Source: Syntrophorhabdaceae bacterium (GTDB taxonomy: Bacteria > Desulfobacterota > Syntrophorhabdia > Syntrophorhabdales > Syntrophorhabdaceae). Taken from it: 64,000 nucleotides of DNA. A model generated the notes under the pieces. It was not told the origin of the DNA, did not search any database, and saw nothing but the letters and a program-made list of their open reading frames with translations. A program made the translations under genes and the position numbers. The number at the start of each line of letters is the position of its first letter. The stretch's first letter is position 1. The stretch covers positions 1,152,001 through 1,216,000 of the forward strand of contig CAXXUO010000001.1 of the NCBI GenBank assembly GCA_963666485.2. Direction: 5' to 3'. Below are positions 10,672 to 64,000 of this stretch, in pieces.

Positions 10672-11901
10672 TTACAGCTTTTGCGCCAGGCCGAGCCTGT
10701 CGAGGGTTTCAAAATAGGCTTCGATGCGCGTCCGTACCTGGGATTCCGCGTAGAATCTCTGGTCTCCCATGTCGCTCTCGAAAACGAGTGCGGGGATGCC
10801 GGTCCTCTTCGTGAGAACGTCTTTGAGGGTCGGAACGGCGAAGGACACGGCCTTGCAGCTTCTGTTCATGAACATGATCATGCTGTTCATCGAATATTTC
10901 TTGAAAAGGTCCATCGCCATGTCGGCGCGGTCCTCGATCGTTGAGTTCGAGAAGCGGTTAACGTAGTTTTCGGCGAGAGTTTCCAGCGGGTCCTTGTTGA
11001 GATCGAACTCGAGGCTCCAGGCATGGACATAAAGGGACGTCAGGATGACGCCGCCATAGGAACCGAGCAATTTCGCATGGTCGCTGAACTTGAACCAGAC
11101 CGGGAGGTTCTCCCAGTAGAGCCGGTATTTTTCCTGGTCTCTCGGGAGGACGCCGATGCCCTGGTCGACCTTTGCCTGGATCTCGTCGCAGAGGGTCTGG
11201 TAGTAATCGACGCATTCCTGCGTGCCCCGGCGGTAGACGGCGATCGCCATACCGATGAGGGCGTCGAAGATGCTGATCGGCGATGGTTTGTACTGTGCCA
11301 TGTCGAGGAATTTCTTGTAAAGGATGCTCGAGGCGGCGGAGTATTTCATGACCTCTTTCAGCCGGTCATAGTCGAATTTTCTCTTCGTGACCTTTTCGAG
11401 CCAGCTGATGAGCTCTTTGAGCTGGAGAACACAGTATTTCACGATTTCCTTGCGCGCTTCCTTGTCCAGGATATGCTCCGGCGTATCGAAGACGAAGACG
11501 GGCAGGTCGCCCCTGCGTGCGAGGACCTGAAACCATTTCGTCAGCGTGAAGCACTGCGCGTTGCAGGCGAGGAAAAGGTCCGGATCGGGGATGCCTTTTG
11601 TAACGGTCACGCCGGTCTTGCGGTACCCGAGGTCGCTGCGGGCATACGCGCACAGGTGGTTTGTGTATCCCATGCTCTCGACGACCGAGCACAGCTCGAC
11701 GCCTTTCTTGGCAGTCAGGTTGGCAACGGCATGGTTCTCGGGATATATGGGAACGATGTCATGTGCAACGAAGAGCTCGACGGGCGAGATGGCCGTCGTG
11801 TACCCGACGAGCTTGCCGTTCTCGCGGGCATGAAAGGCATCCTCCATGTATTCGTCGGTGATCTTCCTCGATAGTTGTTTTGAAGTCAGCTTTTCGCTCA
11901 T
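10672..11901 (-). CDS. 2-hydroxyacyl-CoA dehydratase / benzoyl-CoA reductase family subunit (HgdA/BzdO-like)
   Basis: YPENH, LCAYAR, CNAQC, NRSCK, FESDMGD, TRIEAYFE. Confidence 0.85.
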   Translation of the reverse strand: MSEKLTSKQLSRKITDEYMEDAFHARENGKLVGYTTAISPVELFVAHDIVPIYPENHAVANLTAKKGVELCSVVESMGYTNHLCAYARSDLGYRKTGVTVTKGIPDPDLFLACNAQCFTLTKWFQVLARRGDLPVFVFDTPEHILDKEARKEIVKYCVLQLKELISWLEKVTKRKFDYDRLKEVMKYSAASSILYKKFLDMAQYKPSPISIFDALIGMAIAVYRRGTQECVDYYQTLCDEIQAKVDQGIGVLPRDQEKYRLYWENLPVWFKFSDHAKLLGSYGGVILTSLYVHAWSLEFDLNKDPLETLAENYVNRFSNSTIEDRADMAMDLFKKYSMNSMIMFMNRSCKAVSFAVPTLKDVLTKRTGIPALVFESDMGDQRFYAESQVRTRIEAYFETLDRLGLAQKL

Positions 11902-13031
11902 AATGATCCCCCTTTGAGAGATTCGAAGAATGCCTGTGCCCTGGTCAGGACATGAGACAATGATGTTGTCTGGTATTCGGTGTCAAGGACGTGCATCGGT
12001 ATGCCTTCCTTCTTGATCATGTCTTTCAGGTCCGGCAGGTCATATTCCTGCGATTCGCAGAATTCGATGTGGATGTAAATGACTGCCTTTGCCTTTGTCT
12101 CGTTGTACAGCTTTTTCACTTCTTCGAAATTCTTGTAAACGTTGTCATGGATCGGCGAGAAGAACCCGCGGGTGAAGTGCCTGTCCGTCAGGGCCTGTAC
12201 GGGGTCGCCGTTCGTCGATGCCGCGCCCTGCAGGTAGCGTGAGCCGGTAACAAGCGTGTCGCCGATGATGTTGACCTTGAGATCGTCGAAAATATCGAAC
12301 ACCTCGGGCGGGTCGCAGGTGATTCCCACCATGACGACATCCGTGTAACCTTTACCTTTCTTCGGCTTCAGTCCGTCCTTGACCGCTTTCAATGTTTTGT
12401 TGAACTCGGCCTTGTCGACCTGCTGGGAAACCTTCATGAGCGCGAAGAACTGCTTGTTCGTCAGGGTCCCCGGGTTGTTGCGCTTGATGTCGTAAAGCTC
12501 GGCAAGGAGCTTCTTTGTTTCGTTATGCAGTGCTATCGATTTGTTCAGCGCATCGCTGCTCAGCTTTTTCCCGGTCCATTTTTCTAAGGACTCGATAAGC
12601 CGTTCGATCTCTTCCTTGACCCAGTAGTGCGCGCTCGGCCTGTCGGCCTGACGGGGTGCGAGATAGCTGTGGACATACTTGTCAGGGAAGTTGATGCGCC
12701 ATATGTCGGAAAGGTGCTGCGTGGTATCGCAGACCTGCGGCAAAACGAAACCACTGAAAAGGTCCCCTTCGTAGCTCAACGCAAGTTCGAGGTTGCTCCG
12801 TGCGAGTGAACAGGCATTGTCAGGAAGATGGCTCGGGGCCTTCTTTAAGGGTTTATGAGTACCAAGAATTGTCACGGGGAGGAGGTCAAAGGCGTATATG
12901 ACCTCTTCGGGAACATCGGCGATGGTACTCCCAACTACTTTCTTTCCTGTATCTCTGGCCCATTGGCGGATGGAAGGATACGGATCCTTAGCGAGTGCAA
13001 CAACATCTTTCAGATTTAGACTTTCCCACAT
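11898..13031 (-). CDS. 2-hydroxyacyl-CoA dehydratase family subunit (HgdB/BzdN-like)
   Basis: VPEEVIYAF, ACSLAR, VCDT, EFCES, TRAQAFFE. Confidence 0.85.
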   Translation of the reverse strand: MWESLNLKDVVALAKDPYPSIRQWARDTGKKVVGSTIADVPEEVIYAFDLLPVTILGTHKPLKKAPSHLPDNACSLARSNLELALSYEGDLFSGFVLPQVCDTTQHLSDIWRINFPDKYVHSYLAPRQADRPSAHYWVKEEIERLIESLEKWTGKKLSSDALNKSIALHNETKKLLAELYDIKRNNPGTLTNKQFFALMKVSQQVDKAEFNKTLKAVKDGLKPKKGKGYTDVVMVGITCDPPEVFDIFDDLKVNIIGDTLVTGSRYLQGAASTNGDPVQALTDRHFTRGFFSPIHDNVYKNFEEVKKLYNETKAKAVIYIHIEFCESQEYDLPDLKDMIKKEGIPMHVLDTEYQTTSLSHVLTRAQAFFESLKGGSL

Positions 13032-41313: not shown

Positions 41314-41436
41314 AACGTAAGGCGTAAGCCCTCTCCCCTGTTGTCATTCCCACTTTCGAGACTGTGTCCCAATTCCTCCAACCCCGTCATCCCGGCTCTT
41401 ACGGCCGGGATGACGGGGTGAGGGACGCCTTACGCT
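41314..41436. repeat. GGCGTAA heptamers flanking a REP-like palindrome (41381-41419)
   Basis: ACCCCGTCATCCCGGC-tcttacg-GCCGGGATGACGGGGT; partial GTCATTCCC at 41343. Confidence 0.8.
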
Positions 41437-43319
41437 CTTTTCGAGAGCAATATGAGATTCTGGTCCGCCAATGTTTCGTATTTCTTTGAACGGGACAATT
41501 CTGCTATAAGGACGGGATCGGGGCGGTCGAGAACGAACACCATTGTGCCGCTGGGCTTCAGGTACGTCATCCCCCGTTTTATATACGCCTTTGTTGCATC
41601 GGCGACAGGGACCGTCTCTTCCCACGTGAGGCCCTGTGAGGGCTGGACAAATATGTAATCGAACGCTCCGTCGATAAGGAACGGGAATTCTATCTCGAGA
41701 TGAAAGAAACCGTTCTGCCTTGCGAGGGCCTTTGCCTGCACGAACCAGTCGCGCGCCGTCATCGCGTCCCATGGCCCACTGTCGGCGTCAAGCAGGGAAA
41801 GGCATTCCTGGATCTTCCGCTGATCGATCGTCTTAACAAAATATGTGGCTGTTATAAGGTCCATGATGTCCCTCAAACGGCCCAAGTGTTCGTCCAGTTT
41901 TTGCGACAACTCCCCCTTTATGACAACGTCTTCCTTGATCCTGTCGGAAAGCGAGGCGAACTGCCGGTACATGTTTCTTACATCTGCCACGATGTCAAGG
42001 GGGTTTTTGGCGAAGAGGCCCGCCTGGTCCTGCTTCGCCGCATGCGGGGTGATGTCGGACAGTGACATCCCGATAAGAGGGTTGCCTAACTTATAATTCA
42101 TGCTGTCGCACCCGTGGCGGTTCTTTAAAGCATGATGAAGAATATCGAACGAGATATGAGAACGCTCGATACCGTAGAGAACATTTTCGAGTATGGAGCA
42201 CTTCAGGCTCTTCTCATCCTCCCATTGGGCGATGAAGCCATTCCTTTCCCGGTAGGGAAGGACAAACGAGAGATATGCCAGGCATTCGACGATCTCGAGG
42301 GAAAGGTTGCCGAAGCCGGGCGTCATGTCGAGGACCTTGAGCGACAGGAGCGCGTCCTTTGTCCGGTCCTCGGGCGGGCGCATCGCAAATACCCTTTCGA
42401 GGTCGACACGGGGAATGCCGCCTTTTTTGCTGAGGAGAAAAGAAGATATGTCGGCGATATTGAAATCGTCGACCGTGTCGGGCGGGCTCTTCCGTTCCTG
42501 TACCCATACATCTTTTTCGGCAAGGTAATCCCGCGTTGAAACGAAAACATCATTCCCGAAGATATCCGAAAGCCCCCCGATTATGCGGGGGAAGATGTCC
42601 GTCTTTTTTCGAAAGCCTGCCGTGGATGTGCGAAGGGCTGCCTGTTTCTCCTTGAGACGCGTTATTATGGACTGCCTTTCGTTTTCATAGATTTTTTCGA
42701 GGGTCTGCGACAGGCCGTTGAGTGAAAAGACATTGCAGAAAAGACGCAGCGCGTCCCTGTCGTTCACCTCGACGGCCTCCTCGAGGTCTATCGAAAAAAC
42801 ACGCGTTTCATAGGACAGCGGCTTTTTCATCAGCATCCAGTGCTTCCCGTTGGTGAGGATGCCCCAGGGCGTTTTCGTGTTCTTGAGGTAATAGAACAGC
42901 TGGTATAAGGGGATGCCATTCTCGAAAGCGAGAAAAAAGCCGCTCACCCCTTCCTCGAGTTTGCGGCCGAACCGCTTGAGAAGAAGCACCCCGAGCGTGT
43001 TGGCGTAATATTCCGGGGTCCCCCACAGGGGCGATGTGCGGTCGCGTTCGGCATCGGTCGTGAAAAGGGCCGCATCCGGTCCCTTGATATGGTCGTCGAA
43101 ATACTTCGGTTTCGATTCATAGGAGAACCCGAGTATCTTCAGTATGGGTTTGATGAGGTGGATCTCGGTGTGTATCTCGCTCGCGAACTGCTTTATATCC
43201 TGGAACCGGGTCAGTATCTCGAGGAGCGAAACGTATACGAGGTCATCCTGGGGAAGGCCGAGGAGCTCTTCTATCCCGTGGCGGGAAATGAGCGAATTGC
43301 GCACGATGGTCGATTGCAT
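41430..43319 (-). CDS. Type IIG (Eco57I-like) restriction-modification homologue with degenerate catalytic motifs
   Basis: IKPILKILG, PDAALF, WGILTNG, LKVLDMTPGFGNL, LYGIE, GNPL, FFHLEIEFP, FDYIFVQP. Confidence 0.7.
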   Translation of the reverse strand: MQSTIVRNSLISRHGIEELLGLPQDDLVYVSLLEILTRFQDIKQFASEIHTEIHLIKPILKILGFSYESKPKYFDDHIKGPDAALFTTDAERDRTSPLWGTPEYYANTLGVLLLKRFGRKLEEGVSGFFLAFENGIPLYQLFYYLKNTKTPWGILTNGKHWMLMKKPLSYETRVFSIDLEEAVEVNDRDALRLFCNVFSLNGLSQTLEKIYENERQSIITRLKEKQAALRTSTAGFRKKTDIFPRIIGGLSDIFGNDVFVSTRDYLAEKDVWVQERKSPPDTVDDFNIADISSFLLSKKGGIPRVDLERVFAMRPPEDRTKDALLSLKVLDMTPGFGNLSLEIVECLAYLSFVLPYRERNGFIAQWEDEKSLKCSILENVLYGIERSHISFDILHHALKNRHGCDSMNYKLGNPLIGMSLSDITPHAAKQDQAGLFAKNPLDIVADVRNMYRQFASLSDRIKEDVVIKGELSQKLDEHLGRLRDIMDLITATYFVKTIDQRKIQECLSLLDADSGPWDAMTARDWFVQAKALARQNGFFHLEIEFPFLIDGAFDYIFVQPSQGLTWEETVPVADATKAYIKRGMTYLKPSGTMVFVLDRPDPVLIAELSRSKKYETLADQNLILLSKRA

Positions 43320-43351: not shown

Positions 43352-43609
43352 TTAGTCAAGGAAAGGCGCATCATCATTGTCTTTGTGAAAGTCCATGTCC
43401 TGTATGCGCTTTGCCTCCTTGAGCTTCATGAGAATAATGACGATGAGACCGGCGATGCCAATCCAGAAAAGCACGAGGGCCTGGTACAGGATATGCCGGT
43501 CGTACGGGGAGGCTGCCGGTTCAACAACGGTCGGCCCGGCGAAACAGACAACGGGTATCACAATAAGCATGATGAAAACGGTAAATGATCTGCACATCGT
43601 CCTGTCCAC
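43352..43609 (-). CDS. Small membrane protein (signal-like helix plus C-terminal TM), last gene of the sdh-Rieske-cytb operon
   Basis: Start abuts the cytochrome b stop; two hydrophobic segments. Confidence 0.7.
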   Translation of the reverse strand: MDRTMCRSFTVFIMLIVIPVVCFAGPTVVEPAASPYDRHILYQALVLFWIGIAGLIVIILMKLKEAKRIQDMDFHKDNDDAPFLD

Positions 43610-44674
43610 CTATTTTAAGAAAGCGATGATCGTCATTGCCACGAAATAGACGAGGTAAAAAACCGTAATATATGTAAAGACCGGGCTCGGTTTGCCGGCT
43701 GACGACCTCTTGTCCAGGAACGGCACCAGGAAGACGAACAGGACGCCAAGGGAGATCGCGGATATAGCGATCGTTTCACCGTTCATGCCCGCTATCTCGC
43801 CGGGGAAAAGCTTCAAGGTCTGGAAGACGAAGAGGAAGTACCATTCCGGTTTTATGTTTTCCGGCGCAGGCGCCATCGGGTCTGCCTTCGTCCCTATCGA
43901 TGCAGGAAAGACGACTGCAAGGGTGACGACGACGCCCGTGCACAGGAGCCAGACGATAAGGTCCTTGTAAAAAACATTCGGGAAAAATGGCTGCGGTCTT
44001 CCCTGCCGGTCTTTCTGGGACAGGGGGACGCTCATGCCGTGGACCTGGACGAGCAGCACGTGGACCCCGATGATGACAAGGCTTATCATGGGCAGGACGC
44101 TGACATGAAAGGCATAGAACCGCGTCAGGGTCTCCTGCGTGACGTCAAAGCCGCCGCGCAGGAATATCTTGATGGCCGGGCCGATGAGCGGAAGGTTCCC
44201 TGCGCCTCCCGTCGCAACGCGGATCGCCGTGAAGGCCCTTTCGTCCCAGACAAGAAAATATCCGCTCAGCCCGAAAAAAACGAGAAGGGTGATCAGGATG
44301 AAGCCGGTTATCCATAACAGTTCGCGCGGCTTCCGGTATGCCTTCAGCAGGAAGTTGGCGAAAAAGTGAACGAACAGCGAGGCTATCGCAAGTTGCGCAC
44401 CCCAGTGGTGCAGCGACCGGAAGAACCAGCCCAGGGGGAGCTTCGTCATAATGTCGACAATGCTCTTGTGGGCGTATTCGGAATGGGGGATGTAGTACAG
44501 GGCAAGGCCCATGCCTGTCATGAATTGCATGACAAAAAGGAAGAGGGTCATCCCTCCCGTAAAATACGAGATGTCCCAGCGGTGCGACGGGACGTACTTT
44601 GCCCGGATGACCCGGCGCAGGCCATCCACGTCGTAGCGCTCGGTGATCCAGTCACTAAGCTTTCGGGAGTTCAA
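43610..44674 (-). CDS. Cytochrome b of a Rieske/cytochrome b complex
   Basis: LHHWGA..VH and FH-x14-H heme ligands, TLTRFY, IKPEWYFL. Confidence 0.93.
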   Translation of the reverse strand: MNSRKLSDWITERYDVDGLRRVIRAKYVPSHRWDISYFTGGMTLFLFVMQFMTGMGLALYYIPHSEYAHKSIVDIMTKLPLGWFFRSLHHWGAQLAIASLFVHFFANFLLKAYRKPRELLWITGFILITLLVFFGLSGYFLVWDERAFTAIRVATGGAGNLPLIGPAIKIFLRGGFDVTQETLTRFYAFHVSVLPMISLVIIGVHVLLVQVHGMSVPLSQKDRQGRPQPFFPNVFYKDLIVWLLCTGVVVTLAVVFPASIGTKADPMAPAPENIKPEWYFLFVFQTLKLFPGEIAGMNGETIAISAISLGVLFVFLVPFLDKRSSAGKPSPVFTYITVFYLVYFVAMTIIAFLK

Positions 44675-45125
44675 CCTTCACCCCTTTTTTCGCTATGACC
44701 AGTTTCGGCCCGTTCATGACGATCTCGAAGCATTCGAGAGGCCGCGGAGGGGGGCCCTCGATGTTCCTGCCGTTGTCATCGAACCACCCCTTGTGGCACG
44801 CGCAATAGAATTTTCGCACATCCGCCACGTAGGATATGTTGCACTCCATGTGCGTGCAGACCCCTTTCAGTGCGAGCATCGTACCGTCGGCTTTTTTCAG
44901 GAAAAAACCGGGTTTGCCGCCCCATGCGAACGTCTTTACGGTGTTTCCGGGTATGTCGACAAAATCGGCCGTGTTGAGAACGACAAAATCCGGCTCTTTC
45001 CCGACAGCGGGAAAGATGAACTTGAGGAAGGCGTAGATGCCCCCGGAGAGGACAGCGATAAGCCACCCGCCGAAGAGCGTGTTGAGAAATGTCCGCCGGC
45101 TGATGAGTGAATAGTTGAGTTTCAT
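44655..45125 (-). CDS. Rieske [2Fe-2S] protein, Tat-exported
   Basis: SRRTFL, CTHMEC, CACHKGWF, GPPPRPL; ATG overlaps the sdhB TGA. Confidence 0.93.
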   Translation of the reverse strand: MKLNYSLISRRTFLNTLFGGWLIAVLSGGIYAFLKFIFPAVGKEPDFVVLNTADFVDIPGNTVKTFAWGGKPGFFLKKADGTMLALKGVCTHMECNISYVADVRKFYCACHKGWFDDNGRNIEGPPPRPLECFEIVMNGPKLVIAKKGVKVELPKA

Positions 45126-45862
45126 CCGCGCATACCCAGCAATTTCTTTGCCCTCTTTACGAAAAGCTTCTTCCTCAGGTCGATTATCGCATCGGTCGGC
45201 CGCACATCTTTCGGGCATGCCTCGATGCACTTAAGGACTGTATCACAGCCCCAGACCCCGTGCTCGCTGTCTATCTCGTCGAGTGCTGAGTCAGGGCGTT
45301 CATCGCGGGAATCGAGGACAAACCTCTCGAGCTTGGCGAGCGCCGCCGGCCCTAAGTATTCGGGGTCACGGGATATGACCGGGCACGCCCCGTAACAGCA
45401 TGCGCACAGGATGCAATTCACGAACTGGTCGATCTTTGCCCTGTCCTCCTCGCTTTGTTTCAATTCCTTTTCGGGGTCCTGACCTGACCGGTCAAGCCAT
45501 GGCCTTATCTTCTCGTACATCGTCCAGAACGGGGTCATGTCTACGACGAGGTCCTTTATGATCTCCATGTTCGGAAGGGGCTCGAGGATTATCGTGTCCG
45601 TCCCGAACGATGCCGCCTGCGTCCTGCAGGCAAGGTCTATCCTGCCGTTCATGACCATGGCGCAGGACCCGCAGACCGCAGACCTGCATGACGAACGGAA
45701 TGAAAGCGTCCCGTCTATCTCGTCGCGTATCCTGTTAAGAACGGCGAGGATGGTCAGCCCGGGCAGTACCCTGACCCGGTAGGTCTGGAACCTCGCTCCG
45801 TCCCCCGGTTTTTTCCTGTCGTAGCGCAGGATCTTGAAAGTGTATGCCGTGGCCCGTATCAA
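45122..45862 (-). CDS. sdhB: Succinate dehydrogenase/fumarate reductase Fe-S subunit
   Basis: SCRSAVCGSC, DLVVD, CILCACC...CP, GPAAL, CDTVLKCIEACP; TTG start overlaps the sdhA stop. Confidence 0.93.
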   Translation of the reverse strand: MIRATAYTFKILRYDRKKPGDGARFQTYRVRVLPGLTILAVLNRIRDEIDGTLSFRSSCRSAVCGSCAMVMNGRIDLACRTQAASFGTDTIILEPLPNMEIIKDLVVDMTPFWTMYEKIRPWLDRSGQDPEKELKQSEEDRAKIDQFVNCILCACCYGACPVISRDPEYLGPAALAKLERFVLDSRDERPDSALDEIDSEHGVWGCDTVLKCIEACPKDVRPTDAIIDLRKKLFVKRAKKLLGMRG

Positions 45863-47568
45863 TACGTCCTCTCCATTGGCTTGAAACGGGTGATCGCAAC
45901 GTCCCTGTATGATATGTCCGGCATCCCGCTGCCATTCAGGCGGGCGATCGAATGCCTGAGCCATTTCTCGTCATCCCTTTTTGGAAAATCGGTCCGTGAA
46001 TGCGCCCCCCTGCTTTCTTCACGCAGGAAGGCCCCGCGGGCGATCGTCGAGGCCACGTCGAACATGTAATCGAGTTCGATGGCGTTCATGAGTTCATAGT
46101 TCATTGAAAGTGAGGACGAGGAGGTCCCGACATCCCGGTACCGCACCTTCAACGCCGCTATTTCTTCAAGGGCCTTCTGCGCGTCTGCCGCTGTCCGGAA
46201 GATGCCGGCGTACGTGCTCATCACCTTTGCGAGCTCCCCGTGGAGCTGAAATGTCTTTTCTTTCCCTCCGGCAACGAGGCCCCGGACCTTGTCCTCCAAG
46301 GCCGCCGCGGCACGCGCACAGGCCTTGTCATCCGGTGCTCTGCCGGAAGACGACAGGTACCGGTCGATGGCCGCCGCGGCTATCTTTCCGAACACGATCG
46401 TCTCGAGAAGCGAATTGCCGCCGAGCCTGTTGGCGCCGTGGACGCTGACGCAGGCACATTCGCCTGCCGCGAAGAAACCCCCTACCTCTGTCGCACACGT
46501 GGCGTCGGTATCGATCCCTCCCATGGAGTAATGCTGGCACGGCATAATGGGGATGGGTTCCCTGATGGGGTCAATACCTATAAAATCTATGCATATCTTC
46601 CGGATGCCCGGCAATTTTTCGGTGATCTTCTTCTCGCCGAGGTGCATGAGGTCGAGACGGATGTAGTTCCCGAGAGGATGCTCGAAGCAACGGCCTTCGT
46701 TGATCTCTGTCTGTATGCTCCGGGAGACTATGTCGCGGGGGGCAAGCTCCATGGCCTTCGGCGCATATTTCTCCATAAAGCGTTCACCCCGCGCATTGAC
46801 CAGGTAGCCGCCTTCGCCCCGGCAGGCCTCGGTCATCAATATGTTGGTCCCGATAAGCCCGGTCGGGTGGAACTGGACGAATTCCATGTCCTTGAGCGGC
46901 ACCCCGGCCCGAAATGCCATCCCGATCCCGCTCCCCGTATTGATAAGTGCGTTCGTCGAGTAGAAATAGACCCGTCCGTAACCCCCGGTCGCAAAAAGGG
47001 TCGCCTTAGCGGCGAGCGAGACGATCTCCCCGTTCATGAGGTCGAAGGCGACGACGCCATGGCAGGTTTTCCCGTCAACCACAAGGGATGTTACGTGCCA
47101 TTCCGGGTATATCGTGACGCCGAGGCTCACCGCCTTTTCGAACAGCGTGTTCAAAAGAACATGCCCGGTCAGGTCCGCGGAGTAGCAGGTTCTCGGGTAC
47201 CCTGCCCCGCCGAAAGGCCGCTGGGCGATGGTGCCGTCCGGGAGGCGGCTGAACGGGCACCCCCAGTGCTCCATCTCGTAGACGATCCCGGGGGCTTCCC
47301 TGCACATGATCTCCACCGCATCCTGATCTGCGAGGTAGTCGCTCCCTTTTACCGTGTCGAAGGCATGCTTTTCCCAGGAGTCGTCGGCTGCGTCCGGGTT
47401 GTTCCCGAGGGCAGCGTTTATGCCGCCCTGGGCGGCGATGGAATGGGACCTCAAGGGGTGGACCTTGGACAGGAGCACGACATCGTACTTCCCGCAAAGT
47501 CCCACGGCGGCGCGAAGCCCTGCAAGGCCGCCCCCGACTATGATGACATCATGGGTACGCGTTATCAT
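45859..47568 (-). CDS. sdhA: Succinate dehydrogenase/fumarate reductase flavoprotein
   Basis: GGGLAG, RSHSIAAQGG, QFHPTG, TEACRGEG, HYSMGG, HGANRLGGNSL, ESRGAH. Confidence 0.95.
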   Translation of the reverse strand: MITRTHDVIIVGGGLAGLRAAVGLCGKYDVVLLSKVHPLRSHSIAAQGGINAALGNNPDAADDSWEKHAFDTVKGSDYLADQDAVEIMCREAPGIVYEMEHWGCPFSRLPDGTIAQRPFGGAGYPRTCYSADLTGHVLLNTLFEKAVSLGVTIYPEWHVTSLVVDGKTCHGVVAFDLMNGEIVSLAAKATLFATGGYGRVYFYSTNALINTGSGIGMAFRAGVPLKDMEFVQFHPTGLIGTNILMTEACRGEGGYLVNARGERFMEKYAPKAMELAPRDIVSRSIQTEINEGRCFEHPLGNYIRLDLMHLGEKKITEKLPGIRKICIDFIGIDPIREPIPIMPCQHYSMGGIDTDATCATEVGGFFAAGECACVSVHGANRLGGNSLLETIVFGKIAAAAIDRYLSSSGRAPDDKACARAAAALEDKVRGLVAGGKEKTFQLHGELAKVMSTYAGIFRTAADAQKALEEIAALKVRYRDVGTSSSSLSMNYELMNAIELDYMFDVASTIARGAFLREESRGAHSRTDFPKRDDEKWLRHSIARLNGSGMPDISYRDVAITRFKPMERTY

Positions 47569-47870
47569 ACTGTGACGAAATACATGTAGAGTAAAAAAGC
47601 CGATATGGCCGACGCGGCGATATTGGCGGCGAGGAACAGCCGTTTTTCATTCCTGTACCCGAAGTCCATGACAATGGTCCTGATCCCGTACATGCTGTGG
47701 AACGTGAACAGTACGAGAACGAGGACATCGACGATAGGCTGGCGGTGGAGGCTGAGCGCCCAATCGGGCTTCTTGTCCTGCCCCATGAGGAAATAGCCGG
47801 TGAGCACCTTGATGCCGATAAGAACGATAAGCGCCGCTCCGCTTATCCTGTGAAAGAACCATATGAACAT
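47565..47870 (-). CDS. Succinate dehydrogenase membrane anchor (SdhC/D-like, 3 TM)
   Basis: FHRISG and FHSMYGIR His motifs; RBS GAGGAG. Confidence 0.8.
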   Translation of the reverse strand: MFIWFFHRISGAALIVLIGIKVLTGYFLMGQDKKPDWALSLHRQPIVDVLVLVLFTFHSMYGIRTIVMDFGYRNEKRLFLAANIAASAISAFLLYMYFVTV

Positions 47871-47996
47871 TCATGCTCCTCGATCTGATGTGAGAACAAT
47901 ACCATAAAAGGGGCATTGAGTTCCATGCCGCATCGGGATGAAATTTGCTTTTTCCTATTTTGTTATTATAATGAAAAGAAAAAAACCGAGGCTCGC

Positions 47997-62782: not shown

Positions 62783-64000
62783 TTATGTGCCCTCTATTAT
62801 TTTCAGGGCGGGCAGGAGGTGGGTTTCCACGAATGTGACCGGGTCATCGGGGTCGACCTGGTTGATGACGCTCGTCCCCACGACGACGTTGGGCCCGCCG
62901 GCGCACTGGTCAGTGCAGAACCGCGCCTTTATCCTGAACCTTTCGAGGAGTCCGCGTTTCTTGAGCTCGGCGGAAAGCCCCTCGAGGAGGTGGAAGGAGC
63001 CCTTGAGGTAGCAGCTTGTCCCGAGACAGACGCCGACATCAATGGGCGCATTGTCGCGAAGCAATTCTTCGACGGACTCCTGAATGCGCATCGAACGGCG
63101 GCGGTATGTGGTATGGAGGTTATGGTGGGACAGGGTCCCGTCGGGCTTCCCGAGCCAATTGGTGTAGATTGCCTGGATGGTCGGGTTATCCTGGCTTTTC
63201 TTGATGGGTGCGATCTCGTCAAGCCGGTAGAGGACCTCGAGCCTGTCCTCCGGGTCGCTCGTGAGTTTGGGTGCCGGGTTTCCCGAGCCGTTGATGCACC
63301 CTCCCGGGCACGCCATGACCTCGATGAGGTCATACGGGGCGTCCCCGGCACGCATCCGGTCTATCAGGTCCTGGGCATTCTGGAGTCCGCTCACGACCGC
63401 GAGGCGCACCTTTGTCTCGCCCAGGCTGATCGTGGTTTCCTTGACGCCGTTCAGTCCGCGGACCTGTTCATACGTGAAGCCCTCCATCCTCTTGCCCATG
63501 ACGCGCTCGGCGGCCAGTCTCAAGGCCGCCTCGGCCACGCCGCCCGATGCTCCGAAAATGATGCCGGCGCCGCTCACCTTGCCGAAAAAAGCATCGACGG
63601 GGACGGGGTTGAAAAGCCGGGGGTCCATTCCCCGCTCTTCGAACATTCTTATCACTTCCGTCGTTGTCAGGACCGCGTCGACGTCTGCAATGCCCTCCCG
63701 GTTGAACTCGGGACGGCGCGCTTCATATTTTTTGGCATTACAGGGCATGATGGAAACGAAGAAAAGTCTCTCGGGAGGTACCTTCATCTGCCGCGCGAAA
63801 TAGTGTTTCATGACAGAACCGAACATCTGCTGGGGAGACCGGCACGAAGACAGGTGAGGAAGGATGTCGGGCGCCATTTTCTCACAATAATTGACCCATG
63901 CGGGGCAGCACGACGTGATCTGGGGAAGAACGCCCTGTTCCGCGATGCGGGTTAAGAATTCCGTACCTTCTTCCATGATGGTAAGGTCGGCCGCCCAGCA
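62783..64000 (-). CDS. hydA: [FeFe]-hydrogenase catalytic subunit with C-terminal thioredoxin-like [2Fe-2S] domain (5' truncated)
   Basis: H-cluster motifs TSCCPAW, MPCNAKKYE, EVMACPGGCING; CLGTSC..CTDQC. Confidence 0.93.
   Translation of the reverse strand, partial: CWAADLTIMEEGTEFLTRIAEQGVLPQITSCCPAWVNYCEKMAPDILPHLSSCRSPQQMFGSVMKHYFARQMKVPPERLFFVSIMPCNAKKYEARRPEFNREGIADVDAVLTTTEVIRMFEERGMDPRLFNPVPVDAFFGKVSGAGIIFGASGGVAEAALRLAAERVMGKRMEGFTYEQVRGLNGVKETTISLGETKVRLAVVSGLQNAQDLIDRMRAGDAPYDLIEVMACPGGCINGSGNPAPKLTSDPEDRLEVLYRLDEIAPIKKSQDNPTIQAIYTNWLGKPDGTLSHHNLHTTYRRRSMRIQESVEELLRDNAPIDVGVCLGTSCYLKGSFHLLEGLSAELKKRGLLERFRIKARFCTDQCAGGPNVVVGTSVINQVDPDDPVTFVETHLLPALKIIEGT

Follow-up and report, generated by a model that had tools for sequence, protein, structure and literature searches.

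Textbooks treat respiratory complexes II and III as distinct enzymes, and a high-potential cytochrome partner is what defines Rieske/cytochrome b complexes. Among described systems, a close relative of the complex II considered here is Mycobacterium smegmatis Sdh2 (Protein Data Bank [PDB] entry 6LUM), a class A diheme enzyme in which the proximal heme is ligated by His107 of SdhD and His87 of SdhC and the distal heme by His65 of SdhD and His47 of SdhC, and which has an extra single-helix subunit, SdhF (PMC7447783). In passages of a 2023 review of complex II (PMC10238741), the class F enzyme M. smegmatis Sdh1 (7D6V) is the only complex II described with a Rieske-type cluster, and classes A, B, C, E and F are described with no mention in those passages of a single three-helix anchor or of a bc-type partner. 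We analyzed a 64,000-nucleotide stretch of the genome of a Syntrophorhabdaceae bacterium (GCA_963666485.2, contig CAXXUO010000001.1, positions 1,152,001 to 1,216,000; hereafter the window), in which a six-gene operon on the minus strand (window positions 43352–47870) places genes for a succinate dehydrogenase membrane anchor, SdhA and SdhB directly in front of genes for a Rieske protein, a cytochrome b and a small membrane protein. Complex II is thereby found in place of the missing cytochrome c gene, and the organisms concerned operate at the thermodynamic limit. The combination is new and is assembled from two known modules; full-text literature searches returned no description of sdh genes joined to Rieske/cytochrome b genes, the genome papers of Syntrophus aciditrophicus and Syntrophorhabdus aromaticivorans lying outside their coverage. 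The conserved operon points to a combined respiratory enzyme new to the searched literature, and what the sequence establishes is gene linkage, be it of one enzyme or of two co-regulated ones.

The operon begins with a gene for an SdhC-type membrane anchor of 101 residues (47870–47565; Pfam PF01127, Sdh_cyt, 42.3 bits against a cut-off of 25.8), followed by sdhA (569 residues, 47568–45859; TIGR01812, 776.7 bits, cut-off 567.3) and sdhB (246 residues from a TTG at 45862, 45862–45122; NF004616, 277.8 bits, cut-off 228). Then come the genes for the Rieske protein (156 residues from an ATG at 45125, 45125–44655; Pfam Rieske, 46.1 bits), the cytochrome b (354 residues from a TTG at 44674, 44674–43610; PF00033 Cytochrome_B, PF13631 and PF00032 Cytochrom_B_C) and a small conserved membrane protein of 85 residues that has no family match in Pfam or NCBIfam (43609–43352). 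From 5' to 3', successive genes are joined by ATGA, TTGA and ATGA overlaps, a 20-nt overlap and a direct abutment. A preliminary description of this DNA had listed six overlapping or abutting genes, for an anchor, SdhA, SdhB, a Rieske protein exported by twin-arginine translocation (Tat), cytochrome b and a small membrane protein, and both the junctions and the family searches bear this out; its open reading frame (ORF) calls placed all six genes correctly, but for sdhB and for the Rieske gene the longest ORF begins too far upstream. The starts given above for these two genes are the likely choices: the sdhB TTG overlaps the sdhA stop codon, and family alignments start at residue 39–45 of the longest sdhB ORF.

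An internal promoter or terminator that might split the sdh genes from the Rieske/cytochrome b genes, a possibility raised in the preliminary description, has no space between them, because the genes overlap. Across related loci, for which start codons were chosen heuristically, sdhB and the Rieske gene overlap in 57 of 58 (by 4 or 11 nt in 56 loci, 31 + 25, and by 1 nt in one more), and the Rieske and cytochrome b genes share a 20-nt overlap in 55 of 58; both junctions are as tight as the ones inside each module. A terminator scan found 14 weak terminator-like matches, versus 8.2 ± 2.8 in shuffled sequences, none of them at a gene junction. Upstream of the anchor gene, the non-coding segment at 47871–47990 (minus strand) is the presumed promoter region of the operon and is common to a divergent gene; a scan of the minus strand with a sigma-70-like consensus found no promoter site there. 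As read from the arrangement of the reading frames, the six genes are one co-translated operon that is inherited as a unit.

The gene order extends far beyond the window. An alignment of cytochrome b relatives led to 80 loci in species-representative genomes, among which L001–L061 are sdh-linked, with cytochromes b that are 52–85% identical. These loci span Syntrophorhabdus, Smithella, Syntrophus, other Syntrophales and one metagenome-assembled genome (MAG) labelled Clostridia (L061), and the cultured Syntrophorhabdus aromaticivorans UI has the operon (L020). The sdhB and Rieske genes stand directly upstream of cytochrome b in all 60 assessable loci (L054 starts at cytochrome b and is therefore outside this count), the anchor is present in 53/53 loci whose contig extends to it, and the small protein was found by tblastn behind cytochrome b in 56 of the 57 loci that reach that far, L061 being the exception. 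An anchor-based metagenome search recovered the full order in 35/35 loci with at least 4.3 kb of downstream sequence; the scan, made with a diverse anchor alignment, gave only close relatives (at least 66% identity) and did not widen the taxonomic range. When 401 genomes sampled evenly from the phylum were searched, 28 had the anchor at E ≤ 1e-10, and in 22 of these 28 cytochrome b is encoded on the same strand of the same contig at a distance of about 3 kb. Six of those 22 genomes are of other families, with anchors 39–44% and cytochromes b 43–48% identical, and the order is kept down to 42–46% cytochrome b and 40–42% anchor identity in L085 and L086. The survey of gene neighborhoods that the preliminary description had proposed therefore returned a strongly conserved order, although the counts include non-independent kin and are to be read as persistence and not as statistics. 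Within the window's own family, genome G348 (99% complete) lacks both the anchor and the cytochrome b gene. Judged by this persistence, the link between the complex II and Rieske/cytochrome b genes is real, old and selected.

The complex II module contains both a flavoprotein with the characteristic residues and an iron-sulfur subunit. SdhA matches chain A of Sdh2 (6LUM_A) at E 8e-150, and alignment with Escherichia coli SdhA (1NEK_A) shows that the RSH, FHPTG, TExCRGEGG, RDxVxRS, HYxMGG and HGANRLGGNSL stretches are kept; we take these to hold the flavin adenine dinucleotide (FAD)-binding residues, including the His that carries covalent FAD, and the substrate-binding and catalytic His, Arg and Thr residues. 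An aspartate oxidase or other paralogue was considered for SdhA and ruled out by the TIGR01812 score above cut-off together with these conserved residues. SdhA has no signal peptide, which places it in the cytoplasm. SdhB matches TIGR00384 (240.9 bits, above cut-off) in addition to NF004616, it has Fer2_3 and Fer4 domains, and the cysteine groups for the 2Fe-2S, 4Fe-4S and 3Fe-4S clusters can be read from its translation. Elsewhere the genome has another sdhA/sdhB pair (48% and 40% identical, respectively), flanked by a class II fumarase gene and putA (G000:C2:277959–280397; L082 3959–6397). No membrane anchor gene adjoins it, and it could encode a soluble or differently anchored fumarate reductase.

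The AlphaFold2 model of the anchor (mean pLDDT 94.6) has three long helices (residues 2–28, 45–69 and 75–100) and a short periplasmic helix (36–42) that ends at His42. The best sequence match in the PDB is 6LUM_C, the SdhC of M. smegmatis Sdh2 (E 5.4e-05), and the fold superposes on both SdhC and SdhD chains (best TM-score 0.76, root-mean-square deviation 2.8), with 6LUM among the best, although no Foldseek match has E < 0.001. In the alignment with 6LUM_C, His58 corresponds to His87, a ligand of the proximal heme, and Lys21 to His47, a ligand of the distal heme. Lys21 and His58 are invariant in 48 anchor sequences, as are an HR motif (His7-Arg8) and the loop PDWALxLHR that contains His42. The preliminary description had noted a single small anchor, and there is indeed only one such gene in the operon and, by tblastn, only one in the whole genome.

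These features set the anchor apart from those of several classes of complex II. Classes A, C and D have two three-helix anchor subunits, and here there is one; the diheme class A has a distal His, and here the proximal His58 is present but the distal His is replaced by Lys21 in 48/48 sequences; and class B has one anchor with five helices and four heme His residues, whereas this anchor has 101 residues and three long helices. Set against the review passages cited above (PMC10238741), this single small anchor, with Lys at the distal-heme position, fits none of the classes A to F described there. The module resembles Sdh2 in keeping the proximal-heme His (His58) and in having a single-helix small subunit beside complex II, as SdhF is in Sdh2 (PMC7447783). 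It differs from Sdh2 in having one anchor gene and not SdhC plus SdhD, in the invariant Lys at the distal-heme position, in the invariant His42 on a periplasmic helix that is absent from Sdh2, and in the joining of its genes to Rieske/cytochrome b. With one canonical ligand, the anchor can complete a heme site only by pairing with another copy of itself or by borrowing a His from a different protein. A further heme site, for example at His42, is possible, and the number of hemes in the anchor that we propose below is one that we infer.

The second module has the features of a complete quinol-oxidizing unit. The Rieske protein is predicted to be exported and anchored in the membrane: its N-terminus (MKLNYSLISRRTFLN) has a twin-arginine motif (SRRTFL), the protein has one helix, and the cluster-binding boxes CTHMEC and CACHKGWF (CxH and CxxH) are present, including both cysteines of the disulfide pair. 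It is PetC-like and has a PetC-like helix, with the PetC-like family matches below their cut-offs. The closest solved Rieske domains are 9rk3_A, annotated 'Similar to Rieske 2Fe-2S iron sulfur protein (Cytochrome b6-F complex)' (E 2.7e-14), and 9rk4_A, annotated 'Similar to the Rieske Protein II of bc1 complex'. No fused longer form of the Rieske protein (e.g. SdhB–Rieske) was found at E ≤ 1e-10, a negative that carries little weight. In Sdh1, according to the review passages (PMC10238741), the cluster lies within a six-helix anchor and there is no bc-type cytochrome b, whereas here a Tat-exported Rieske protein and a cytochrome b are encoded by separate genes.

The cytochrome b consists of a b6-like N-terminal half fused to a half that resembles subunit IV. 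Its first 218 residues align to b6 with the four heme ligands (His89, His103, His190 and His205) all in place, and the PEWY of the quinol-oxidation loop lies at residues 276–279 and is invariant among the aligned relatives; the four His and PEWY named in the preliminary description are thus upheld. The N-terminal half matches the b6 of b6f and b6-type bc complexes (6RQF, 1VF5) at E 9e-49, and the full-length protein matches the cytochrome b of Aquifex bc1 (6KLS) at E 1.8e-42. The module is like b6f/bc complexes in its PEWY, its four heme ligands and a PetC-like Rieske protein with both boxes and the disulfide cysteines. It is unlike them in that the operon has no gene for cytochrome f, c1 or a diheme c, and its Rieske box reads CACHKGWF and not CPCHGSxY; and, unlike in b6f, the b6 part and subunit IV are in one chain. 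Phe38 aligns with the Cys of the b6 IFYC stretch, which we take to be the heme ci ligand, and this sets the protein apart from b6f proper. The small protein that follows resembles a signal peptide at its N-terminus, crosses the membrane once through a helix with an invariant FW pair, and has a C-terminal tail that is charged. A role as a heme or iron-sulfur carrier was considered for it and ruled out, as it has no conserved His or Cys.

What this module does not have is the usual partner. No ORF of the operon has a CxxCH motif, and the co-encoded c-type cytochrome of complex III is accordingly absent; in the 64-kb window a single ORF, for a DUF5714 protein, has one CxxCH. Among the 61 sdh-linked loci, there is no ORF with at least two CxxCH motifs up to 9 kb on either side. 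The term cytochrome-c-less, used in the preliminary description, therefore holds for the operon but not for the genome, where the search for a partner cytochrome c that it proposed returned several candidates, ORFs with 11, 10, 9, 6 and 4 CxxCH motifs. A CcsA/ResC-type maturation gene adjoins a gene for a 127-residue tetraheme protein with a signal peptide (G000:C1:1016491–1018944), a candidate soluble periplasmic electron carrier.

Comparison with the nearest relatives that have kept a cytochrome c is informative. A sister clade (L062–L080) comprises Acidobacteriota (Pyrinomonadaceae and others) with cytochromes b 47–50% identical to that of the window; it has Rieske–cytochrome b genes and no sdh, and an ORF with nine CxxCH motifs directly follows cytochrome b in 17/17 loci with downstream sequence. 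One genome of the phylum sample (G076) also has Rieske–cytochrome b without sdh, and there the nine-CxxCH ORF adjoins the Rieske gene. Both share with the window the length and fusion of cytochrome b and the Rieske gene directly upstream, and they differ in lacking sdh genes in front, in having a multiheme cytochrome c and in a Rieske box that ends in Tyr, not Phe. In a quick maximum-likelihood tree (midpoint-rooted, with L086 and L061 on long branches), the 61 sdh-linked and 20 cytochrome-c-linked cytochromes b lie on two sides of one branch (SH-aLRT 98). Of 63 sdh-linked Rieske proteins, 57 have the box CxCH-x-G-x-F, as against CxCH-x-G-x-Y in 18 of 19 from the sister clade. In bc1 complexes, Ser and Tyr at these two box positions raise the potential of the cluster, and mutants that lose them lower it, so that the change from Tyr to Phe would be expected to make the sdh-linked cluster less positive, suiting a less positive partner. 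By our own count, 36 cytochrome b columns are conserved within each clade and differ between them, and with topology assigned by homology to b6, 23 of these are periplasmic and 8 cytoplasmic. The 23 periplasmic columns map to loops and to the ends of helices that surround the quinol-oxidation site and heme bL, and this pattern suggests that the change of partner took place on the periplasmic side.

We tentatively favor a reading, to which we would assign somewhat less than even probability, in which the succinate/fumarate couple replaces cytochrome c as the partner of the Q-cycle module, probably for reverse electron transport. In the complex II part, the flavoprotein and the iron-sulfur subunit for succinate/fumarate would be held by one SdhC-type heme b anchor, the Rieske/cytochrome b part would supply a complete quinol-oxidizing module plus the small single-helix subunit, and the two would act as one quinone-linked unit. 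Succinate/fumarate, which would be the most positive couple available to these fermenting syntrophs, would then stand in for cytochrome c as the partner at positive potential in a Q-cycle machine. With the membrane potential driving it in reverse, such a unit would raise succinate electrons onto a low-potential quinol; reverse electron transport is the costliest step for syntrophs. In the forward direction the unit would act as a quinol:fumarate reductase that conserves energy. Textbook potentials are about +30 mV for fumarate/succinate and about -75 mV for menaquinone, and by our own arithmetic a forward Q cycle with a transmembrane anchor would have to translocate about four charges for every two electrons with about 0.2 eV at its disposal, which is not feasible at normal membrane potentials; since this cost exceeds the yield from quinol to fumarate, the reverse direction would be the only feasible one. 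The reverse reaction would suit a syntroph that regenerates fumarate or oxidizes succinate with only H2 or formate as sinks. We infer physical contact between the modules, the electron path between the anchor and Rieske/cytochrome b, and the direction of flow; a single co-folding run of cytochrome b, Rieske protein, small protein and anchor (ipSAE 0.00 and 0.01) has no bearing either way. If correct, this would be a new way of coupling the succinate/fumarate pair to the Q cycle, and it bears on the old question of how syntrophs pay for oxidizing succinate-level donors with only H2 or formate as acceptors, which the cultured S. aromaticivorans UI makes directly testable.

Besides the infeasible forward direction, several observations weigh against this partner exchange. 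With the Rieske cluster in the periplasm and SdhAB in the cytoplasm, a direct path would need a transmembrane wire, and the anchor has a single canonical heme ligand, His58, with Lys21 at the distal-heme position. Two genomes, G399 (L087 2586–5393) and G246 (L088 2592–5426), have stand-alone sdhCAB operons that lack neighboring Rieske and cytochrome b genes. These three-gene operons likewise have one anchor only, which keeps Lys21, Trp37, His42, Asp48 and His58 and has Leu or Ile in place of the His7 seen in every linked anchor, and a complex II with the same anchor type can thus work alone. In G152, of the window's family, the operon is split over two contigs with both groups far from the contig ends: one has anchor–sdhA–sdhB–Rieske followed by a ThiE-like ORF (L083, G152:C22:133000–142000), and the other has cytochrome b, the small protein and a methyltransferase-like gene (L084, G152:C21:20000–29000). 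The Rieske gene thus stayed with sdhCAB in this genome, and its cytochrome b has a long branch in the tree (0.87 versus a median of 0.086). The multiheme ORFs of the host genome and its CcsA-type maturation gene could serve the Rieske protein. Neither is a standard quinone pathway apparent: MqnA/MqnD (PF02621) has no match in the 99%-complete host genome, and the best MenD and MenB matches (55.5 and 153.6 bits) are below their cut-offs (244.2 and 342.7). Two MenA-like prenyltransferases are present (C2:141066–141824 and C4:207048–207830), and the quinone type is an assumption here. The complex II–III hybrid proposed in the preliminary description is accordingly supported as a conserved gene link, but not as an obligatory hybrid, given the two genomes with stand-alone sdhCAB and the split in G152.

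The stand-alone single-anchor operons, the split in G152 and the multiheme ORFs (11, 10, 9, 6 and 4 CxxCH, including the tetraheme protein beside the CcsA-type gene) favor a different account, as does the fact that each module looks complete alone. Here two separate, co-expressed complexes would share the quinone pool, a complex II with a homodimeric anchor and a Rieske/cytochrome b complex that passes electrons to a periplasmic cytochrome c encoded elsewhere. We consider this a serious possibility that is on balance doubtful: it sits poorly with a cytochrome c gene beside cytochrome b in 17/17 sister-clade loci and in 0/61 sdh-linked loci within about 9 kb, it is not obvious which acceptor of these strict fermenters would be positive enough to let a Rieske center run forwards, and sharing of a pool alone leaves the translational coupling across the module border (57/58 loci) unexplained. 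The partner exchange can also be carried further, to a fused complex II/III in which paired anchors bind two hemes, one between a pair of His58 and one between a pair of His42, and so connect the iron-sulfur chain in the cytoplasm with the Rieske cluster in the periplasm; succinate/fumarate would replace cytochrome c, and the machine would be driven in reverse at about four charges per succinate. In this complete form we regard it as unlikely, and if true it would be a dedicated machine of syntrophs that pushes succinate electrons to a very low-potential quinol.

A transmembrane wire through the anchor is unnecessary if it is the low-potential branch that feeds complex II. One electron would then pass from quinol at the Qo site through hemes bL and bH to the anchor heme, the iron-sulfur chain, FAD and fumarate, while the Rieske electron goes to a periplasmic acceptor, making the enzyme bifurcating. 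The design can be likened to that of anammox bacteria, for which Rieske/cytochrome b complexes with added cytoplasmic modules have been proposed, and it fits both the position of the His58 heme site towards the cytoplasmic side, as for heme bH, and the identity of the closest solved Rieske domains, the 9rk3_A and 9rk4_A entries named above. It would still require a positive-potential periplasmic acceptor, as well as stoichiometric fumarate, and by our count only 8 of the 36 clade-specific cytochrome b changes are on the cytoplasmic face; we consider it improbable. Chance adjacency that is kept by descent and has no functional meaning receives almost no credence from us. Most loci are from related orders and the counts are not independent, as such an origin would have it, but the order persists in other families at the low identities of L085 and L086 (42–46% for cytochrome b, 40–42% for the anchor) and in the Clostridia-labelled MAG (L061), and the reading frames overlap throughout.

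The host genome is 3.77 Mb and 99% complete, its closest cytochrome b homologues are named Syntrophorhabdaceae, and it has a single Rieske gene and a single bc-type cytochrome b. It also has seven [FeFe]-hydrogenase-type domains, four of them clustered at C1:1.33–1.36 Mb, and the H2-producing anaerobe envisaged in the preliminary description is reasonable in light of these. One of the seven, an [FeFe]-hydrogenase large-subunit domain, is at 63287–64000 on the minus strand and runs past the window end (G000:C1:1215287–1216132).

Downstream of the operon, 32 nt behind it, is a gene for a 629-residue protein (41430–43319, minus strand) with no Pfam or NCBIfam match, which is not counted in the operon. 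A promoter-like site, TTGACT-17-TATTAT (43359–43331), lies ahead of it. The closest look-alikes of the protein in a language-model comparison are Eco57I/MmeI-type N6 DNA methyltransferases (scores 0.91–0.93), and we take a relationship to these enzymes as a lead only. Among the 61 related loci, 25 have this gene behind the operon, most of them labelled Syntrophorhabdus, and in G152 it is with the cytochrome b and small-protein genes. Elsewhere in the window, two adjacent genes of the 2-hydroxyglutaryl-CoA dehydratase D-component family (HGD-D; 10672–13031, minus strand) are present; this family also takes in subunits of ATP-dependent benzoyl-CoA reductase, which would fit an aromatic-degrading syntroph.

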